Part shown: positions 2,107 through 27,938 of the stretch, piece after piece | Numbering within the stretch: position 1 is the stretch's first letter | Layout: the number at the start of each line of letters is the position of its first letter | From: Eubacteriales bacterium | Lineage (GTDB): Bacteria; Bacillota; Clostridia; Oscillospirales; CAG-272 | Direction: 5' to 3' | Assembly (NCBI GenBank): GCA_045613985.1 | Contig: JAZLCA010000064.1 | Coordinates: 13,837-77,836, forward strand | Length of the DNA: 64,000 nt | The notes under the pieces: model-generated | The model's input: only the letters and a program-made list of their open reading frames with translations | Database searches by the model: none | Told to the model about the DNA's origin: nothing | Program-made: the position numbers and the translations under genes

Positions 2107-4374
2107 TCATTGTCCTGCCATCAGGGAGGTGGCGCGGTCGCGGTTTCGGATGCGGAAGGAAAGACCTGAGGCAAGGGGTGGGATCAGGGCGCATAAAAGC
2201 GACACACCGCCCGCGAGCAGGAGAGCTTCCCACGGGACACCGGCATCCAGCACCACCGCATCCATAAAGCCCAGGGCGGGCAGATAGCGATTGAACAGCG
2301 AGAAGACGAGACGGTGTCCGATCAGCATGGCGGGCAGGCAAAGGGCGAGGAACAAAAGTGCCTCGGCGCAGCCCGACATAAGAGACGAGCGGAGCAGTTG
2401 CCCTGACGTCGCGCCCAGCGCCCGCAGCATTTGCCATTCGCTCTCGCGCTTTTTGTAAAACACCAGCTGAGAGAAAACGGATATCAGGGGCATCATGATC
2501 AAAAATCCGGCGGCCAGCAGCTTCATCCGTCCTTCCATGTTGGACAGCGATGCCAGATAACGGTCGAAAAAGACGTCGTGGTCGGTGACGCTACAGCTGT
2601 AATAGTCGAAGCCTGCGGCGTACACAGCCTTCGACACCTGCTCCCAGGTGGCAAAATCGGCATCGCTTTGCAGATAAACGTCGGTCGAATAGCGGATGGG
2701 AGTCTCGGCAGTCAAGGCCTCGTACTGCCCGAAATTGACACCGAACAACAGCTTGGCATCCGGGGTGACGTCGCAAATCACAGCACCGACGGTGAACTCT
2801 TCGTAAGCAAAGGTACCGCTTTCCAGCTGGAACTGAAGGGTTCGCATATCATCGACAACGATACCCTCCACCTCGGCATCCACTGCCGAGACGGCAACAA
2901 GGATCTTGTCGCCCACCGAAAAATCAAACATGGCGGTGCTGTTGACGGATTCGCTGATGAGAATGGTGTGATCGTCCGAAAGGACAGAGTAGGGATCGCC
3001 CTCGACGTTGGGATACCGGGTCAGCAGAGCCCGGATCGCGGCCTCGTCCAATGCGGTGTAAGAATACGCGTTGGTGGCGGCGTGATAGCCCTGTGCGGCG
3101 GCACCGCCGTCGTAATAAACGCTGACAGAGGAGTGCGCGGCGTTGCGATCGGTCAGTAGCATATGTCCGCACACGGCGGTGGCATCGTACGCCAGAGCCT
3201 CGGGCAAGCACAGGGAGATGCCAGGAACGTCCGAAAGACGGTCAGCCAGCGCGGCGGTGTTTTCGTTGAGCGTCTCGGCGTCAACCACGGAGGGATGGAA
3301 GGTCAGGGTAAAATCGGGGGCGGGGGAGGGATGTCTTTGCTCGTAGATATTGGCGATGGTCAAGGCGGCGACGAACAGCACGGGCAGAAGCACGGTGGGA
3401 ATGAGCAACCATGCAAAATAGCGGCGGTAGCGCCACAGACTGAGCAATTCAAAATCGCGGGGGAAGGCGGCTCCGAAAATGCGGCGGGAGCGGCGGGGAG
3501 ACACCACGTGGTTGCTGTTATCACGCGCCCGCAACAGCTCCACCGGTGTCTTTTTTGACAGACGACGCATGGGGAGCTTGACGGCGGTGAGAATGGTCAA
3601 GGCGACAAACAGGGCAACCATGAAGGGAACGATGGGGGCCGTGGCAGGGAACACGCCCCGCGTGGCGTACAAAAGGACGGTCAGACCGCCGCCCAAAAGC
3701 AGGGCGGGGACGAAGGCGAGCGCCGCCAAAACGGCCAATTCGCCGCAGCTTTTGCGATACAAACGGCGATAGCCGGCGCCGCAGGTCATGCAGATGGCGT
3801 AGTCGAAGGTGTCACGGTCCAGGCGCATACGGTACAACTGGATCAGCCAGAAAACGGATAGACCAAACACGACGAGCGTGGCAAGAGTAACGAAGACGAG
3901 AATGTCGGGCAGATATTCCGTTTTGTAGTCGTACAGAGGGGAGTATCCCACCTCTAATCCCTCGATCCCGTGGCGGTAGAGAAAGTTCTCGGCTGCGATA
4001 CGGCGGGTGATCCCCTTCAGGGTTATGTAGGCGTTATAACTGCCGTCCGACATCTTCTCGTAGCGGATGGCAGAATAGGCGGCAGATTTGAGGACGGCTG
4101 CCGGCTCGGTGCCGCAATCATTATAGAGCTGAACGTATTGGGGCTGTGTCATGCCGCGGTATTCCAACTCGTAATCGTAGGTCTCGGTCACCGTTCTTCG
4201 TACGGTGGCAAGATCGGTCGCCGCCGACATAAACAGAACGGTGTACAGTGTTTGGACGATAAGAAGCGCTAACAGAAAGGCGATATGTGACGAAAGGTTA
4301 TGGAGCAGAGTGTCAAAAGCACCGCGTTTGGCTTTTCTTGCGGTTTCTTTTTGGGGGACGTCGCGTTGGGGCAT
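2107..4374 (-). CDS. ABC transporter permease, FtsX/MacB family, with large extracytoplasmic regions
   Basis: 755 aa with multiple TM segments and a C-terminal FtsX-like 4-TM block. Sits immediately upstream of the ATPase gene. RBS AAGGAGG. Confidence 0.8.
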   Translation of the reverse strand: MPQRDVPQKETARKAKRGAFDTLLHNLSSHIAFLLALLIVQTLYTVLFMSAATDLATVRRTVTETYDYELEYRGMTQPQYVQLYNDCGTEPAAVLKSAAYSAIRYEKMSDGSYNAYITLKGITRRIAAENFLYRHGIEGLEVGYSPLYDYKTEYLPDILVFVTLATLVVFGLSVFWLIQLYRMRLDRDTFDYAICMTCGAGYRRLYRKSCGELAVLAALAFVPALLLGGGLTVLLYATRGVFPATAPIVPFMVALFVALTILTAVKLPMRRLSKKTPVELLRARDNSNHVVSPRRSRRIFGAAFPRDFELLSLWRYRRYFAWLLIPTVLLPVLFVAALTIANIYEQRHPSPAPDFTLTFHPSVVDAETLNENTAALADRLSDVPGISLCLPEALAYDATAVCGHMLLTDRNAAHSSVSVYYDGGAAAQGYHAATNAYSYTALDEAAIRALLTRYPNVEGDPYSVLSDDHTILISESVNSTAMFDFSVGDKILVAVSAVDAEVEGIVVDDMRTLQFQLESGTFAYEEFTVGAVICDVTPDAKLLFGVNFGQYEALTAETPIRYSTDVYLQSDADFATWEQVSKAVYAAGFDYYSCSVTDHDVFFDRYLASLSNMEGRMKLLAAGFLIMMPLISVFSQLVFYKKRESEWQMLRALGATSGQLLRSSLMSGCAEALLFLALCLPAMLIGHRLVFSLFNRYLPALGFMDAVVLDAGVPWEALLLAGGVSLLCALIPPLASGLSFRIRNRDRATSLMAGQ

Positions 4375-6547: not shown

Positions 6548-6700
6548 TTGGGATTGATTTTTAAACGACTTCGTGTACGGGCTCGCACAGCTTCGCGCGC
6601 TCGCAAAAAGCAAATGGCCCGTTCTTTGCCGCGCGGCAAAGAATGAACACGAAAATCGGAACAGATCAGCGCGCGGCACAGCCGCGCAGTATGATCGTCA
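6548..6700. repeat. Short copy of a mosaic hairpin intergenic repeat (related to 9902-10280 in inverted order)
   Basis: Shares TTTTTGTTTGG..TTTTTA(A/C)A..ACTTCGT, GCGCGAAGCTGT (rc), CGCGCTGATCTGTTC..GTTCATTCTTTGCCGC (rc) and GACGATCATA (rc) with 9902-10280. Contains the perfect palindrome TTCTTTGCCGCGCGGCAAAGAA (6622-6643). Confidence 0.6.
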
Positions 6701-9901: not shown

Positions 9902-10280
9902 TTTTTTGTTTGGCTGGGTTTTTTACAACTTCGTAGCCGGACGATCATAACGCGGGTTCTTAATTCAGTGCTTGCAGGGGTTTTCAGTTACCCGCTCCCG
10001 AAGAATTTTGCAAGCAAAATTCTTCCCATAGAAATACAAGTTTCACATCGCGCTGATCTGTTCAGCTTTTGGGATGTTCATTCTTTGCCGCTTGATGGAA
10101 AGCCAACACGAGCGGCAGATATGCCAAAGCAAAAAGTTTGGCGGGTTTCTTAAGGGCATTAAGCCCTTAAGCTGATTTTCTTTCGTCCTTTCTTTGTTCA
10201 GTGACAAAGAAAGGACATAAAAGCCGGTACAGCGCGGCGCGAAGCTGTACGCGCGTCAAGTAGCGGAGTTGCAGAGAGTT
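9902..10280. repeat. Long copy of the mosaic hairpin intergenic repeat (MITE-like; weak terminal inverted similarity)
   Basis: At least 5 stem-loops: 10000-10025 GAAGAATTTTGC/GCAAAATTCTTC, 10086-10117, 10149-10171 CTTAAGGGC/GCCCTTAAG, 10186-10215 TCCTTTCTTTGT/ACAAAGAAAGGA, and 10228-10250. Modules are shared with 6548-6700. Ends TACAACTTCGTAGCCGGAC and rc(CTGCAACTCCGCTACTTGAC) are partly inverted. Confidence 0.55.
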
Positions 10281-23548: not shown

Positions 23549-23903
23549 GGCGGGGGACTTCCTTTCTTGACAAATTGACGCCCGATGCGTCGTCTTGGTA
23601 TTATGATACCATAGCAAAAAAGGAGAGTCAACAATTTTCAAAGGGTAATGTTGCACAAAGTTTATGATGAATGAATGATTGGGGAATCCGACTGCCGCTT
23701 CGCGGCATCGGCGGAGTCTGCCTGTGGTGAACTTGCGGGATATGGATAGTAGAACTTTGGCAAGCTCCGCGAGCTCAAAAAGAATATCTCGCGGGCGGAA
23801 CACCCGCGCCTCGCTTTGCGAGGACGATATTCTTTCGACGGGGTTTTCATCCCGAAAGATAACAACAAAAGGCAAAGCACACGCTGTGTGATCTGCCTTT
23901 TGC

Positions 23904-23929
23904 TGGTGACCCATCGGGGAATCAGAACC
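23904..23929 (-). repeat. Degenerate copy of the tRNA-Lys 3' end (T-loop to CCA)
   Basis: The minus strand reads GGTTCTGATTCCCCGATGGGTCACCA. The last 20 nt are identical to the 3' end of the tRNA at 24071-24146, and the T-loop carries one extra nt (TTCTGATT versus TTCGATT). It is followed by the hairpin CAAAAGGCA..TGCCTTTTG. Confidence 0.8.
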
Positions 23930-24070
23930 TTGTTTTGCGCTCTTACAACTTCAAAATTGTAGCAATAACAAGCGCAAAACGAGCAAATCCTGCGGATTTG
24001 CGAGGCTTCGTTCCATTCAAGGAATCTTCAAAACAAAAACAACCTGCTGTGTAGCAGGTTGTTTTTGTTT

Positions 24071-24146
24071 TGGTGACCCATCGGGGAATCGAACCCCGGA
24101 CACCTTGATTAAAAGTCAAGTGCTCTACCGCCTGAGCTAATGGGTC
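24071..24146 (-). tRNA. tRNA-Lys (anticodon UUU)
   Basis: Hand-folded cloverleaf: acceptor GACCCAT/ATGGGTC, D arm GCTC/GAGC, anticodon arm CTTGA-CTTTTAA-TCAAG, T arm CGGGG-TTCGATT-CCCCG, encoded CCA. Confidence 0.93.
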
Positions 24147-24166
24147 AAATCGGTTTTAACTTGGAT

Positions 24167-24195
24167 AGTATATCACAAAAGTTTTGGCTTGTCAA
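24167..24195 (-). promoter_or_regulatory. sigma-A-like promoter of tRNA-Lys (TTGACA-N17-TATACT)
   Basis: The hexamers sit at 24195-24190 and 24172-24167 on the minus strand, about 20 nt upstream of tRNA position 1. Confidence 0.6.
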
Positions 24196-24339
24196 GGAGT
24201 TTTGGAAAAAAGATGAAAAATCCTTGGTTGCGCGTATTTTCAAGATAGTTTTTGCCTTACGACGGGAGTTTATGCAAAATAAGAAAAGAGCTACCCCGTC
24301 GCCACAATACGGGGAACGGGGTAGCCGGGTTTGATTGGG

Positions 24340-27300
24340 TTATTCGGATCGGAGTGCGATGACGGGATCCTTGCGGGAGGCGATACGGGCAGGAACCAGG
24401 CCTGCGATGAAGGTCAACACCATACTGATGATGACCAGCGCGATGGCGCCGCCCAGCGGCAGGACTGCCGTGATGCTGTCAATTCCCGTGGCCGCACGGA
24501 GGATGAGCGTGATGGGGATGCAGACGAGGGCGGTAAAGCCGATACCGATCGCACCTGCTGCAAAGCCGACGATAAGTGTTTCGGCATTGAACACCCGCGA
24601 GATATCCCGCTTGGATGCGCCGATGGCGCGCAGAATACCGATCTCCTTGATACGTTCCAGCACCGAGATATAGGTGATGATGCCGATCATGATGGAGGAA
24701 ACGACCAGAGAAATGGAAACGAAGGCGATCAACACGTAGGAAATGGCGTCGACAATAATGGTTACCGAGGACATCATGTTACCTACGATATCGGTGTACT
24801 GCAGCTGGTCTTCTTTCTTTACGGAGCCGTTATACTCCGCGATGAAATCTTCCAAGTATGCCTTGGCGTCAAAGTCAACCGCGTAGAAATTGATGGAGGC
24901 GGGATCGCCTTTGACGGAGTCACCCAACAGCGACAGGTTGGAATCGTAGGTCGCGTCGGTCTGGGGCGCGAGATCGTACAGCGTATCCTGCAAGGTGGTG
25001 AACTGCTCGTCGTCCATCATGCGAAGCAGGGTGGGGAAGTTGGTATCATCGACGGACATGAGCAACAGCTGCTCGTTCATAAAGTCGTAGATGCTTGCCA
25101 TGGCTTCCTCGCCGCACATGGCCTGCAAGCCCTTGATATCCATGGGAACCTGTTCGGACTTGGGAATACCGCCGATGGCCACCATGATCTGCTCCAGGGA
25201 CAAGGCGGGCAACAGCGTGACCAAGTTGTCGGGGGTGATTTCGACACCGGGCATCATCTTCGAAAGTGCCATGGTGAGAATGCTCAACGACATGGTATTG
25301 GCGGGATTTGCCTTGGCAATGTCCAACATCTGGGAGATCAGAGCGGTCAATTGCTCGTTGTTCATCATGGCGGCAAAGCCCATAAAGCTATCGGCATTCA
25401 CAGGCGGGTTTGCCACAAACATATCGTGGATCTGCTCGGTCATAAAGGCATACAGCGCATCCAGCGTTTTTCTGTCGATGGTGCGGATGAGCTCATCAAT
25501 GTTTTCCTTGGTGTAAACGGTGCGCTCGAATTTGAGGCCGGTCAGCACGTTGTATTCGGGAGCCGCCTTTTGTTGAGCGATGATCTCGCTCTGTTCATTT
25601 TGCTCCAGAATCAGATCGGTCAGCGCCTTGGTGTAGCCGATGGCACCTGTGATGGAGGTAGCAGCAACGCCCTTCTTGGGACGCACGATGCCGGCGATCT
25701 TGAGCTCCATGCCGTTCTCGGTGACGAATTTTTCCTGGTCATAGTGGAGGGCATCCTCGCGCAGATCCTCCCAAACGGGATAGGTCACACCGTCGACCGT
25801 ATAGGTCATGCCATCCTTTTTGGCAAAGAAATCGGAGGTGTTGACCAGGCGGAAGGTCATGTTAAGGAAATCGTCGTAGGTGTAAGGATCCATGGGCGTG
25901 GTGTCGAGCGTTTTGTTCTCGAGCAGATCCTTCATGATATCCTCCAACTCACTCTGATCCAGTACGCCCAGCATATACAGCGTCATTTTGCTGATTTGGT
26001 TGTTGCTGCTGATGACCAGAACGACCTCGTCCGCCTCTGTGGGCCAGTCACCTGCGACGACCTCGTACTGCTGATCCAAAAGGGTCTGATTGTTGATCAT
26101 TTCGGACAGGATGCCCATGCCGCCCATGGGAGAAGCGGACATCAGCTCGGTCATGCCGGCAAAGGCATCACCCATGTTGTCAAAGATCTCGGTGGGATTG
26201 ACCTGCGTTTTTCCGTCCGAGGTGAAGACCTGCAGATCGAAATCGTAGGTGTACTGAATGTCGTTGATATAGGGGCGGAGCTCATCCATGTGGGCGTCGA
26301 GATAGCTCTTGAAATCGGCCAGGTTGTTCTTGACGGTGGCATTCATGGCCGCCATCATGTTGCCCAGCGAATCGTCCACGTGGATCATACCTGAATTGGA
26401 ATAGTCATGCGAATCATCCACGGCCGTCATAGCACCCAGCATGGCCGAGAAGTCCTGCGTTTCACGTTGGATGGTCAAGGGATAGGTGGACAGCGTGTCT
26501 TCTTGCACGGTGGCGATGAACAGATTGACGCCGTTGGACAGAGCAAGAATGAGCGCGATACCGATGATACCGATACTGCCCGCAAAAGAGGTCAGGAAGG
26601 TGCGTCCCTTTTTGGTCATCAGGTTCTGGAAGGAAAGCGACAGAGCGGTGAAGAAGGACATGGAACGCTTGCCCTTGCCGCTGCCGTCGTCGTGCTTTTT
26701 GGCCTTCTTTTTGGCGTTTGCACGCTGTTCTGCCAGCTTGGCACGATAAGCCGCGGCGTCTTCTTCGGCTTCCTTTTCCTCGTAAGGATTGGAGTCGCCC
26801 GTAACCTTGCCGTCCACCAGCTTGACGATGCGATTGGCGTAGGTATCGGCCAATTCGGGGTTGTGGGTAACCATAATAATGAGCTTATCCTTGGAGATCT
26901 CGCGCAAAATATCCATGATCTGAACGCTGGTCACGGTGTCAAGCGCACCTGTCGGCTCGTCGGCCAAGAGGATATCGGGATCGTTAACGAGGGCGCGGGC
27001 AATAGCTACGCGCTGCATTTGTCCTCCCGACATCTGATTGGGCTTTTTGTGGATCTGGTCGCCAAGGCCTACTTTTTCGAGTGCTTCCTTGGCACGGCGT
27101 CGGCGTTCGGTTCGGGAAACGCCCGACAGCGTCAGGGCCAATTCTACGTTGGCAAGAACGCTTTGGTGAGGGATGAGATTATAGCTCTGAAAGACAAAAC
27201 CGATGGAGTGATTGCGGTAGGTGTCCCAATCGGCGGCCTTGTATTCCTTGGTGGAACGGCCGTTGATGATGAGGTCACCGCTGCTGTAGCGGTCAAGACC

Positions 27301-27459
27301 GCCGAGGATGTTGAGCAACGTCGTCTTGCCGCAACCCGACGGGCCGAGAACGGCCACGAATTCGCTGTCGCGGAAGGCAAGATCCACACCGCGCAGGGCA
27401 GGGACGCTCTCTGCTCCGCCGACGTCGTAGGATTTGACAATGCCTTTTAATTGCAGCAT
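24340..27459 (-). CDS. Fused ABC ATPase + FtsX/MacB-type permease with a very large extracytoplasmic domain
   Basis: 1039 aa. N-terminal [36 protein letters not shown]-terminal FtsX-like TM bundle (..[19 protein letters not shown]..). RBS GAAAGGAG. Confidence 0.85.
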
Positions 27460-27529
27460 AATATGACTCCTTTCAAAAAATAGGAGCGCAAAATCGTGTT
27501 TTGCGCATTCGGTAATTTATGATAGTGCT

Positions 27530-27558
27530 ATTATAAGGAAGTATTTGCCCACTGTCAA
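27530..27558 (-). promoter_or_regulatory. sigma-A consensus promoter (TTGACA-N17-TATAAT) of the fused ABC gene
   Basis: Perfect hexamers on the minus strand. The leader contains the hairpin GCGCAAAA-CACGA-TTTTGCGC. Confidence 0.65.
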
Positions 27559-27669
27559 GAAAAATGCCGCATCGTTTAAAAAAAGTTTTCATTCGTGTCA
27601 TGAAGTCACGGATTTTTACGTTGGTGAAGATATAAAAAGGAGACGTCTGTCGAATCAGACGTCTCCTTT

Positions 27670-27696
27670 TGGCACCCCCCAGCGAGAATCAGAACC
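27670..27696 (-). repeat. Degenerate copy of the tRNA-Arg 3' end (T-loop to CCA)
   Basis: The minus strand reads GGTTCTGATTCTCGCTGGGGGGTGCCA. It matches the tRNA-Arg 3' end apart from one extra G and the same 1-nt T-loop insertion seen in the Lys copy. It is followed by a strong terminator hairpin GGAGACGTCTG/CAGACGTCTCC + T5. Confidence 0.8.
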
Positions 27697-27837
27697 GCGC
27701 CCTCGCCTGCGTCGAGGGCAACAAATCGCGTTTTATAAAGCAAGACTCGTTCTGCTTGCGAGCGATTTGCGGTGAGTTTGATGTGACCCGCTGAAAATGC
27801 AAAACCGACACCTCCGCCAGTGCGGAAATGTCGGTTT

Positions 27838-27912
27838 TGGCACCCCCAGCGAGAATCGAACTCACAACTAACCCTTAGGAGGGGCTTGTTATATCCATTT
27901 AACTATGAGGGC
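27838..27912 (-). tRNA. tRNA-Arg (anticodon CCU)
   Basis: Hand-folded cloverleaf: acceptor GCCCTCA/TGGGGGT (two G:U pairs), D arm GTTA/TAAC, anticodon arm AGCCC-CTCCTAA-GGGTT, T arm GTGAG-TTCGATT-CTCGC, encoded CCA. Confidence 0.9.
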
Positions 27913-27938
27913 GTGCGGGCGCGGGTGCGCCCGATATT

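Follow-up and report, generated by a model that had tools for sequence, protein, structure and literature searches.

The tyrT distal repeats of Escherichia coli have been an unexplained curiosity since about 1980. The RtT RNA of this locus is reportedly released from the tyrT primary transcript, in work credited to Rossi et al. in 1981 and to Bosl and Kersten in 1991, and its role is said to be still unclear. To our knowledge, RtT is represented in Rfam as an enterobacterial family only. In this paper we describe two short structured cassettes, or modules, of a comparable design, which were found behind a tRNA-Lys(UUU) gene and a tRNA-Arg(CCU) gene of an Eubacteriales bacterium from the Clostridia. 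The stretch of DNA that was analyzed, referred to as the window, covers 64,000 nucleotides (contig JAZLCA010000064.1 of assembly GCA_045613985.1, positions 13,837 to 77,836). The presence of the two modules is real and far beyond chance. As to what they are, we favor with moderate confidence the reading that they are RtT-like, tRNA-tailed cassettes, which were made by recombination in the T loop and have been selected as a single-strand fold, most likely that of a read-through RNA.

The E. coli units provide the frame for the comparison. Both the excision of RtT from the tyrT transcript and its unsettled function were restated in a preprint (10.1101/2024.07.17.603846). In the tyrT-tyrV locus of E. 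coli K-12 (NC_000913), the Rfam model RF00391 finds four RtT units with scores of 133-138 bits; three of them follow tyrV, and the remaining one lies between the two tRNA-Tyr genes. The units are 178 bp long, and each closes with TAATCCTTCCCCCACCACCA (offsets 158, 336, and 514), the end of tRNA-Tyr, with a start in mid T loop and CCA as its last bases. The units also contain an upstream inverted copy of that strand, GGGGAAGGAT (p=0.003). In the consensus structure of RF00391, an inverted copy of this type and the tail strand make up an outer helix around two hairpins, and this structure is followed by an unpaired CCA.

The comparison set for the modules consisted of the window and the syntenic loci of relatives, which are uncultured gut or rumen Clostridia labelled Oscillospiraceae or Eubacteriales; single loci are cited by their L numbers where they have to be told apart. 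Both modules and their tRNA genes are on the minus strand. The tRNA-Lys(UUU) gene (24071..24146) was called by ARAGORN, and by Rfam with 71.3 bits, and has its own promoter in a promoter scan, TTGACA-17-TATACT at 24195-24167. The gene is followed by terminator 1 (24030..24070), an 18-bp hairpin with a U run, which was recognized by its fold and by comparison with L002 and L126; in relation to L125 it shows a compensatory change from T-A to C-G (seen by eye). Because it is missing from L002 and L126, two sites that are empty of the module, this terminator is part of the insert. Next come the 5' arm (24003..24029), which contains a degenerate inverted copy of the T arm that reads GAATGGAACGAAGCC against the reverse complement GGAATCGAACCCC; helix H1 (23983..24001), GCAAATCC-gca-GGATTTGC, with 91-100% identity in four species; and helix H2 (23933..23979), where an invariant stem, TTTTGCGC/GCGCAAAA, encloses a variable loop of 31 nt (41-77% identity). 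The module closes with the hexamer GGTTCT and a copy of the tRNA-Lys end that starts in mid T loop and runs through CCA (GATTCCCCGATGGGTCACCA); as read at 23904-23929, this pseudo-copy is GGTTCTGATTCCCCGATGGGTCACCA. Behind it stands terminator B (23861..23903), the older terminator of tRNA-Lys, which comes directly after the tRNA in L002 and L126.

The module behind tRNA-Arg(CCU) is built in the same manner. The tRNA gene (27838..27912; ARAGORN and Rfam) starts 26 nt after the stop codon of a TMEM164-family gene (27913-27938), behind a GC-rich hairpin. The promoter scan gave no promoter of its own for this tRNA, and it may be co-transcribed with the TMEM164-family gene. Its terminator 1 (27801..27837), identified by its fold, has a homologous hairpin with compensatory changes in L103 and L106; this terminator, too, is borne by the insert and is missing from the empty site of L110. 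The 5' arm (27771..27800) bears an inverted copy of the T arm and the acceptor strand, reading CAGCGGG..ATCAAACTCAC against the reverse complement CAGCGAG-AATCGAACTCAC (p=0.005). The stem of helix H1 (27721..27770), GCAAATCGC/GCGATTTGT, is invariant in three species around a 32-nt interior of 51-69% identity, and the stem of helix H2 (27699..27719), GCCCTCG/CGAGGGC, is also invariant. GGTTCT leads into the copied 3' end of tRNA-Arg (GATTCTCGCTGGGGGGTGCCA, longer by one G), so that the pseudo-copy at 27670-27696 is read as GGTTCTGATTCTCGCTGGGGGGTGCCA. The copy has a G in place of an A of the tRNA, and its G run is G6, compared to G5 in the tRNA and in the pseudo-copies of L103 and L106; the extra G may be a real change or a homopolymer assembly error. 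Terminator B of this locus (27634..27670) is homologous to the sole terminator of the empty site in L110/L111, and beyond it lies the promoter of a MacB-type gene (27558-27530).

At both places we are looking at a gene-less structured cassette of 167-168 bp, wedged between a tRNA gene and its older terminator, with the same order of parts: a terminator hairpin, a 5' arm of 27-30 nt, H1, H2, two to three bases, GGTTCT, and the tRNA from the fourth base of the T loop to CCA. The exact identity to the tRNA covers 20-21 nt. The junction reads GGTTCT|GATTC at both pseudo-copies, and the junction motif GGTTCTGATTC occurs exactly twice in the 64 kb, at these two places; the Arg tRNA itself has AGTTC. 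The gap from CCA to GGTTCT is 141 nt in both modules, and the gap from CCA to GATTC, the start of the true identity, is 147 nt. Since the spacing in relatives is 145-149 nt, it is a property of the family, and the exact equality seen here is partly luck. No integrase is encoded in the 141-nt interval, and the one reading frame noticed there, a 21-codon frame in the Lys module (by eye), is not conserved, shifts between species, and has no ribosome-binding site.

Much of this arrangement had been described in an original prediction made from the DNA letters, and those descriptions held up well. ARAGORN and Rfam found the two minus-strand tRNA genes where they had been placed, folding confirmed that each tRNA has its own terminator hairpin followed by a hairpin-rich segment, and each segment does end in a copy of its own tRNA from the T loop to CCA, at the positions given above. 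The further hairpin that was expected after each copy is there, with terminator hairpins flanking both modules; the distance of 147 nt was correct on recount; the variant junction is indeed identical in the two copies; and the sole gene between the modules is, as had been proposed, a fused MacB-type ABC gene (ABC_tran+FtsX). One claim survived in part. The copies were thought to lack a complementary 5' strand and not to be tRNAs. They are not tRNAs by either ARAGORN or Rfam RF00005, which call solely the two genuine tRNAs, but a degenerate inverted copy of the T arm does follow the first terminator in each module. These features also bear on the simplest explanation, by which the pseudo-copies are chance similarities, or what is left of the second copy in a tandem tRNA duplication. 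While tandem duplication of tRNA genes is common, the explanation has to face an exact match of 20-21 nt that recurs at one and the same offset behind two different tRNAs and in ten copies in relatives, a segment with no similarity to the 5' half of a tRNA, and a 5' arm that is an inverted, not a direct, copy. The exact identity at a fixed offset and the inverted 5' arm effectively refute it, and we give it next to no credence.

Side by side with RtT, the modules show several common traits. They are located directly behind the cognate tRNA gene on the same strand, have a structured part of ~130 nt in a unit of ~170-180 bp, and end in the cognate tRNA 3' end with identity from the middle of the T loop to CCA. 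They have the upstream inverted copy, which makes an outer helix in the predicted folds, and the two inner hairpins, and the units can stack, as the four units do in K-12. The proposal in the original prediction of a family of RNAs that mimic the 3' end of tRNA has a precedent of the same architecture in E. coli RtT (RF00391). There are also clear differences. The tRNAs in the window are those for Lys and Arg (and for Leu in L048), the phylum is another one, and there is one unit per tRNA in the window. The modules have a strong intrinsic terminator after the tRNA, so a transcript of the module needs read-through. The GGTTCT junction and a GCAAATC helix belong to the modules only, and the modules lack a Tpr-like reading frame.

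A comparison with related genomes, which the original prediction had recommended, produced both occupied and empty versions of the two loci. The Lys module is present in L003, L086, L125, and L001, with a tail copy that is invariant in the first three and truncated in L001. At the empty sites of L002 and L126/L127, tRNA-Lys is directly joined to terminator B, which is followed by an older structure, region X. The Arg module is present in L103-L105 and in L106; the empty site of L110/L111 consists of tRNA-Arg, a homologue of terminator B, and the MacB promoter, and the module is missing in L112 and L117 as well. L125 and L110 are parts of one contig, on which the Lys site is occupied and the Arg site is empty; the two sites therefore behave independently. 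GGTTCT is the same at the Lys and the Arg loci and in all ten copies seen. Because it is shared by two different tRNAs and is unlike the corresponding AGTTC of the Arg tRNA, it is derived from the insert. The view is well supported that the modules are insertions made by recombination in the tRNA T loop, with the left boundary within the segment from the T loop to CCA. The tRNA-Arg end is a live recombination point in this clade, because L106 and L107, which were assembled from separate samples, agree in every base of a 3,884-nt stretch that takes in the TMEM164-family gene and tRNA-Arg, and are wholly different right after GCCAAA, from position 3885 onward. The L107 contigs stop 355 nt past the divergence point, as if at a repeat or a strain-variable element.

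The surroundings of the two tRNA genes vary among the relatives in other ways. In L113 (3800-4070), a tRNA-Arg(CCU) gene is split just after the anticodon arm (..CCTAAGGGGTAGG|CATATCC..), and ~170 nt downstream of the split there is an intact tRNA-Arg(CCU) of different sequence, apparently borne by an element. Genes of large serine recombinases were seen at two loci. The one in L126 (6157-7833, minus strand; 558 aa; Resolvase + Recombinase + Zn_ribbon_recom + DUF4368) adjoins the tRNA-Lys array, and the one in L118 (5035-6501, minus strand; Resolvase + Recombinase + Zn_ribbon_recom) adjoins the TMEM164-family gene at a position where there is no tRNA-Arg. A lipoprotein gene with weak matches to DUF4214/Disaggr_assoc lies between tRNA-Arg and the MacB-type gene in L103 (4134-5993), L106 (4130-5983), L112 (3928 onward), and L124 (280-2139); it is missing in the window and in L110, and its distribution does not track the tree.

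The two modules also have company in the form of stacked units and of a second type of cassette. Region X, the second and older type, occupies 23744..23860 on the minus strand of the window. Its parts are a small hairpin of the CATC..CGGG/CCCCGATG type, a three-way junction (23777-23834), and, at 23744-23755, the T-arm copy in a decayed state, GTTCTACTATCC. The counterpart of terminator B and region X in L126 (5890-6065) has a perfect GGGTTCGATTCCCCGATGGGTCACCA end, 154 nt after the tRNA, and the counterparts in L003 (6215-6370), L002 (4390-4560), and L125 (6047-6170) end in that T arm fused to different 3' strands. In L126, the DNA past the perfect Lys tail opens like terminator 1, with ~19 nt in common, and continues into the serine-recombinase element; the arrangement hints at either a larger relative of the module or the relocation of a cassette. 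Stacking is best seen in L048 (6400-6820, minus strand), where tRNA-Leu(GAG) is followed by three units at offsets of 134, 270, and 404, and every unit ends in the Leu tail. The first unit combines two hairpins with an inverted copy that is exact over 11 nt (GAGGAATGGGA); the second and third share 95% identity and are unlike the first. In L003 (6370-6700) there are 3-4 tandem units of 109 nt, each ending in CCCCGCGGCGCA and having an inverted copy, ACGCCGCC. These tandem units are preceded by a 48-nt tRNA-like minihelix with an acceptor-like stem and an intact T arm, from which ARAGORN makes a 90-nt 'tRNA-Glu'. Any homology between units 2-3 of L048 and the units of L003 would have a single common 9-mer (TACGCCGCC) as its only basis.

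How old the modules are can be judged from the MacB tree. Its nine-species group has two sub-clades, and the Lys module is found in each of them, with the empty sites interspersed as nested branches. A single gain long ago, followed by two or more precise losses, would give this pattern. Between species, H1 with its linker, the H2 stem, and the junction with the tail copy of the Lys module are 91-100% identical. The corresponding values for its variable parts are 41-77% for the H2 loop, 57-79% for the 5' arm, and 54-93% for terminator 1, and the tRNA promoter has 59-78%. In the Arg module the stems are 100% identical, the tail copy 97-100%, and the loops 51-75%; the third codon positions of the gene next to it are 57-62% identical. 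L103 and L106 have a second copy of terminator 1 after the tail copy, which is decaying (55-72% identity) and therefore gives a picture of what an unselected duplicate looks like here. Because the stems and the pseudo-copy are conserved while the loops, the promoter, and the third codon positions diverge, the modules are not neutral scars. The alignments provide good support for the view that purifying selection maintains the stems and the pseudo-copy, and the modules themselves appear to be old and mostly vertically inherited, with a divergence in step with that of their hosts.

These findings have to be held against the other proposal of the original prediction, that the structures are remnants of attachment-site (att) duplications from integration into tRNA 3' ends. 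The insertion part of this proposal stands on the exact empty sites, on the same-strain polymorphism at the tRNA-Arg 3' end, and on a GGTTCT derived from the insert; the part that made them decaying remnants does not, the helices and the pseudo-copy being under purifying selection. In its strict form, the proposal would regard the modules as miniature cis-mobilizable elements (CIMEs): a larger element lost its cargo, its attL and attR arms stayed behind, and the helices are sites for a recombinase or accessory proteins with no cellular function. With the tRNA 3' end directly repeated and correctly oriented, and with exact empty sites, the modules show what is standard for islands that target tRNA genes (PMC4383910) and for CIMEs and CIME accretion (PMC5704250). 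Judged as displaced tRNA fragments in the sense of Islander, the modules have the intact tRNA and a cognate fragment in direct orientation at their ends, and no integrase in the interval; judged as CIMEs, they have attL/attR-like repeats, and their sole candidate relative is the serine-recombinase element of L126, with the ~19 nt from the start of terminator 1 mentioned above. That this DNA comes after a perfect Lys tail and runs into a recombinase element speaks for the remnant explanation, and so does the fact that tRNA-Arg(CCU) and tRNA-Lys are active targets in the clade, as seen in L106/L107, in the split gene of L113, and in the serine recombinases of L126 and L118.

However, the 141 nt are free of genes, and the searches did not turn up a parent element that has these inner helices. 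Neutral scars would be expected to decay like the terminator 1 copy of L103/L106, yet the stems and the pseudo-copy have stayed at 91-100% in species whose third codon positions are near 60%. If internal deletions had occurred independently, the equal length at two tRNAs would be a coincidence, and a classical attP, being double-stranded, has no use for an inverted copy of the T arm. The viral relatives of the L126 serine recombinase are without tRNA-like ends. Searches farther afield gave little: a metagenome scan with a merged Lys/Arg pseudo-copy pattern had 22 matches, one of them real (L086); scans of viral contigs with DNA patterns for the pseudo-copy, the start of the L107 insert, the Arg tail, and the Lys tail had no match; blastn of both modules against 50,697 phage records had none either; and in a BLAST of both intergenic regions against the window, the tRNA tail alone was matched, with no repeat of the DNA downstream of tRNA-Lys at 6548-6700 or 9902-10280. 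We regard the remnant explanation as unlikely, though not negligible. The uneven conservation of the parts also bears on a host-centered explanation, namely that the host selected the module as a transcription insulator, with a double terminator and hairpins shielding the lipoprotein and MacB-type genes from the strong tRNA promoter and with the tail copy as a passenger. Two strong terminators do flank a hairpin cluster in both modules, and the downstream genes in the window are co-oriented and have their own promoters. But an insulator leaves the invariant pseudo-copy and GGTTCT unexplained while the terminator itself drifts (54-93%), the empty sites cope with a single terminator, and the units of L048 face a convergent gene. 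We consider this explanation very unlikely.

What seems to be preserved is a fold. In the folding that the original prediction had called for, the two regions fold far better than shuffled sequence, with z = -10 and -7.7, to which the terminators contribute. The minimum-free-energy folds of all copies have a common Y shape, and RNAalifold agrees for Arg. Substitutions in the 5' arm are on one side, with the pairing mostly kept. The inverted copy includes the 5' strand of the T stem, which is missing from the direct copy. When compared to the reverse complement GGAATCGAACCCC, the inverted T-arm copies read ATCGAACCCC in L001 (p=0.0075) and GAATGGAACCCC in L003 (p=0.0045), and that of the Lys module in the window is marginal in the shuffle test (p=0.09). 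The test was significant for L003, L001, the Arg module of the window, and L107 (p 0.003-0.008), as well as for L048 and E. coli RtT, and gave weaker values for more decayed homologues of the inverted copy. Even the different insert of L107 opens likewise, with a terminator and then TGGCATCCCCAGC..CGAAC. The Lys and Arg modules also share a GCAAATC/GATTTG helix, starting 28 and 30 nt into the segment and closing a loop of 3 nt in Lys and of ~32 nt in Arg; the fact that this helix is kept despite the different loop sizes points to the paired form as what matters. A covariance model made from four Lys modules matched all Lys copies with 89-146 bits.

Put together, the favored reading of RtT-like cassettes would work as follows. 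A cassette would originate by recombination within the T loop, through site-specific integration of a small circle with a copy of the tRNA end or through an equivalent duplicative event, and its precise loss could take place via the 20-nt direct repeat or by excision. Selection would preserve a Y-shaped fold of the single strand with the sense of the tRNA, and this fold would most likely be made when RNA polymerase reads through terminator 1; the chances are about even that the form under selection is a structured read-through RNA. The tRNA-like tail would let the enzymes of tRNA 3'-end processing set the CCA end, as for RtT from the tyrT transcript. Expression between two terminators is feasible: in the rRNA operons of E. 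coli, which have dual terminators, small RNAs arise between the two when the first is read through (PMC8144298).

Quite a few results weigh against this reading. No promoter-like sites were predicted inside either module, and with a terminator 1 of apparently high efficiency in each, transcripts would at best be scarce. Among public sequencing runs there was none with this organism, and one bovine run (X19) gave a 115-nt piece of a relative at ~87% identity. The loci and collections scanned yielded neither a recombinase for the modules nor a circle junction nor a parent element able to move by itself. The resemblance to RtT is architectural only: RF00391, with its threshold of 45 bits, matched nothing in 12 kb at E<=1 and also failed to match when the modules alone were searched at E<=10, and the modules are for this reason analogues or very distant relatives of RtT, not members of its family. 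The fold is also open to another reading. For both Lys and Arg, the duplex energy of the 5' arm with the pseudo-copy is no better than that of shuffled arms (z +0.5 to -1.5), and non-cognate pairs of arm and copy are nearly as good as cognate ones. No two-sided compensatory change occurs inside the modules, because the stems are invariant, and stems with an invariant sequence fit protein-binding DNA sites as well as RNA helices. A strand-specific wobble was considered as proof of an RNA fold and was dropped, since 20 G-T mismatches compared to 8 A-C are about what is expected from the G+T-rich 3' strand of a tRNA. Finally, the idea of the original prediction that one element family is behind both structures is supported in so far as architecture, size, GGTTCT, and the GCAAATC/GATTTG helix are common to them, but the Lys covariance model did not detect the Arg modules, its matches being solely behind tRNA-Lys. 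The relation between Lys and Arg modules is consequently architectural only, and it is either very old or the reflection of a shared constraint.

Some of the same results decide how much weight can be given to a more adventurous explanation, in which the modules are mobile cassettes that have no genes and undergo recombination as single-stranded DNA in a folded state. The inverted copy and the tail would mimic the tRNA gene, one strand would be exchanged in the T loop, and the cassettes would stack and shuffle in an integron-like manner. The observed order of parts, from the left part of the target, the tail copy, and the terminator 1 loop to the inverted copy, the hairpins, GGTTCT, and the right part of the target, is exactly the order expected, and folded single-strand sites have precedents in integron attC and the attP of CTX phage (PMC3442271, PMC4792948). 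The units do stack, the sequence of a helix is kept although loop sizes differ, and in L126 the left end of the first cassette sits after the second one and not at the tRNA, which fits excision and re-insertion at another copy of the T loop. On the other side, shuffled arms match the Lys and Arg stems in complementarity, composition accounts for the mismatch bias between strands, and the GTTCTGA junction departs from GTTRRRY, the consensus of the R' box in attC. The loci examined showed no integrase of the integron type, no circle, and no sign of recent transfer, and the modules look vertically inherited. An origin of this kind strikes us as quite unlikely, and we stay with RtT-like cassettes selected as a fold of the tRNA-sense strand.

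It is instructive to place the modules among the systems they resemble. Like Islander islands (PMC4383910) and CIMEs (PMC5704250), they combine an intact tRNA with a direct 3' fragment, have their boundary at the T loop/T stem, and leave exact empty sites, and the stacked units closed by tail copies, as well as the missing integrase, are what one sees in CIMEs and accretion (PMC5704250). They are unlike the tRNA-targeting elements in having 141 nt between the repeats, no gene, an interior under purifying selection, an inverted T-arm copy, and no identified autonomous relative. With the attC sites and the clusters of attC sites lacking integron integrases (CALIN) of integrons, and with the CTX attP (PMC4792948, PMC3442271), they have in common an imperfect long-range inverted repeat around a variable terminal structure; in attC/CALIN arrays, as here, the site is the 3' boundary of each unit, and the units are arrayed beside a fixed primary site. 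The modules do not have the R and L box consensus, a link to IntI or Xer, or cargo genes, and their folding as DNA is hypothetical. Bacterial MITEs (miniature transposable elements with inverted repeats; PMC11602168) are also small and gene-less, with inverted termini and a long stem-loop fold. The 'termini' of the modules, however, copy the local target tRNA and not a fixed transposase site, there is no short target-site duplication, and neither BLAST nor the Lys covariance model showed dispersed copies of the MITE kind in the window or the loci. The rrA, rrB, and rrF small RNAs (PMC8144298) come close in another respect, being short structured sequences between two terminators behind a highly expressed gene for a stable RNA. 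They lack a tRNA-tail copy, their sequence is unrelated, and for them expression has been demonstrated.

It would be a long shot to go further and unite RtT and the modules of the Clostridia in one unrecognized class, that of gene-less, T-loop-anchored cassettes that move and stack by recombination of folded single strands, in which the inverted T-arm copy would imitate the tRNA gene, and whose transcripts are mimics of a tRNA tail. If true, tRNA genes would be host to a cassette system which resembles that of integrons but is free of protein genes. The comparison has consequences on a smaller scale as well. For the annotation of genomes, it means that short displaced tRNA fragments beside tRNA genes are not automatically dead integration scars, a point of relevance to the finders of genomic islands and to tRNA annotation. 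For RtT, it opens the old question to a comparative approach: which parts are always kept, which tRNAs have modules, and which enzymes are found together with them. That gut Clostridia have this architecture behind their tRNA genes for Lys, Arg, and Leu, clearly under purifying selection, suggests that the RtT design is general and functional, and is unlikely to be the accident of one operon, and tRNA-tailed modules may form a wider class than has been recognized.

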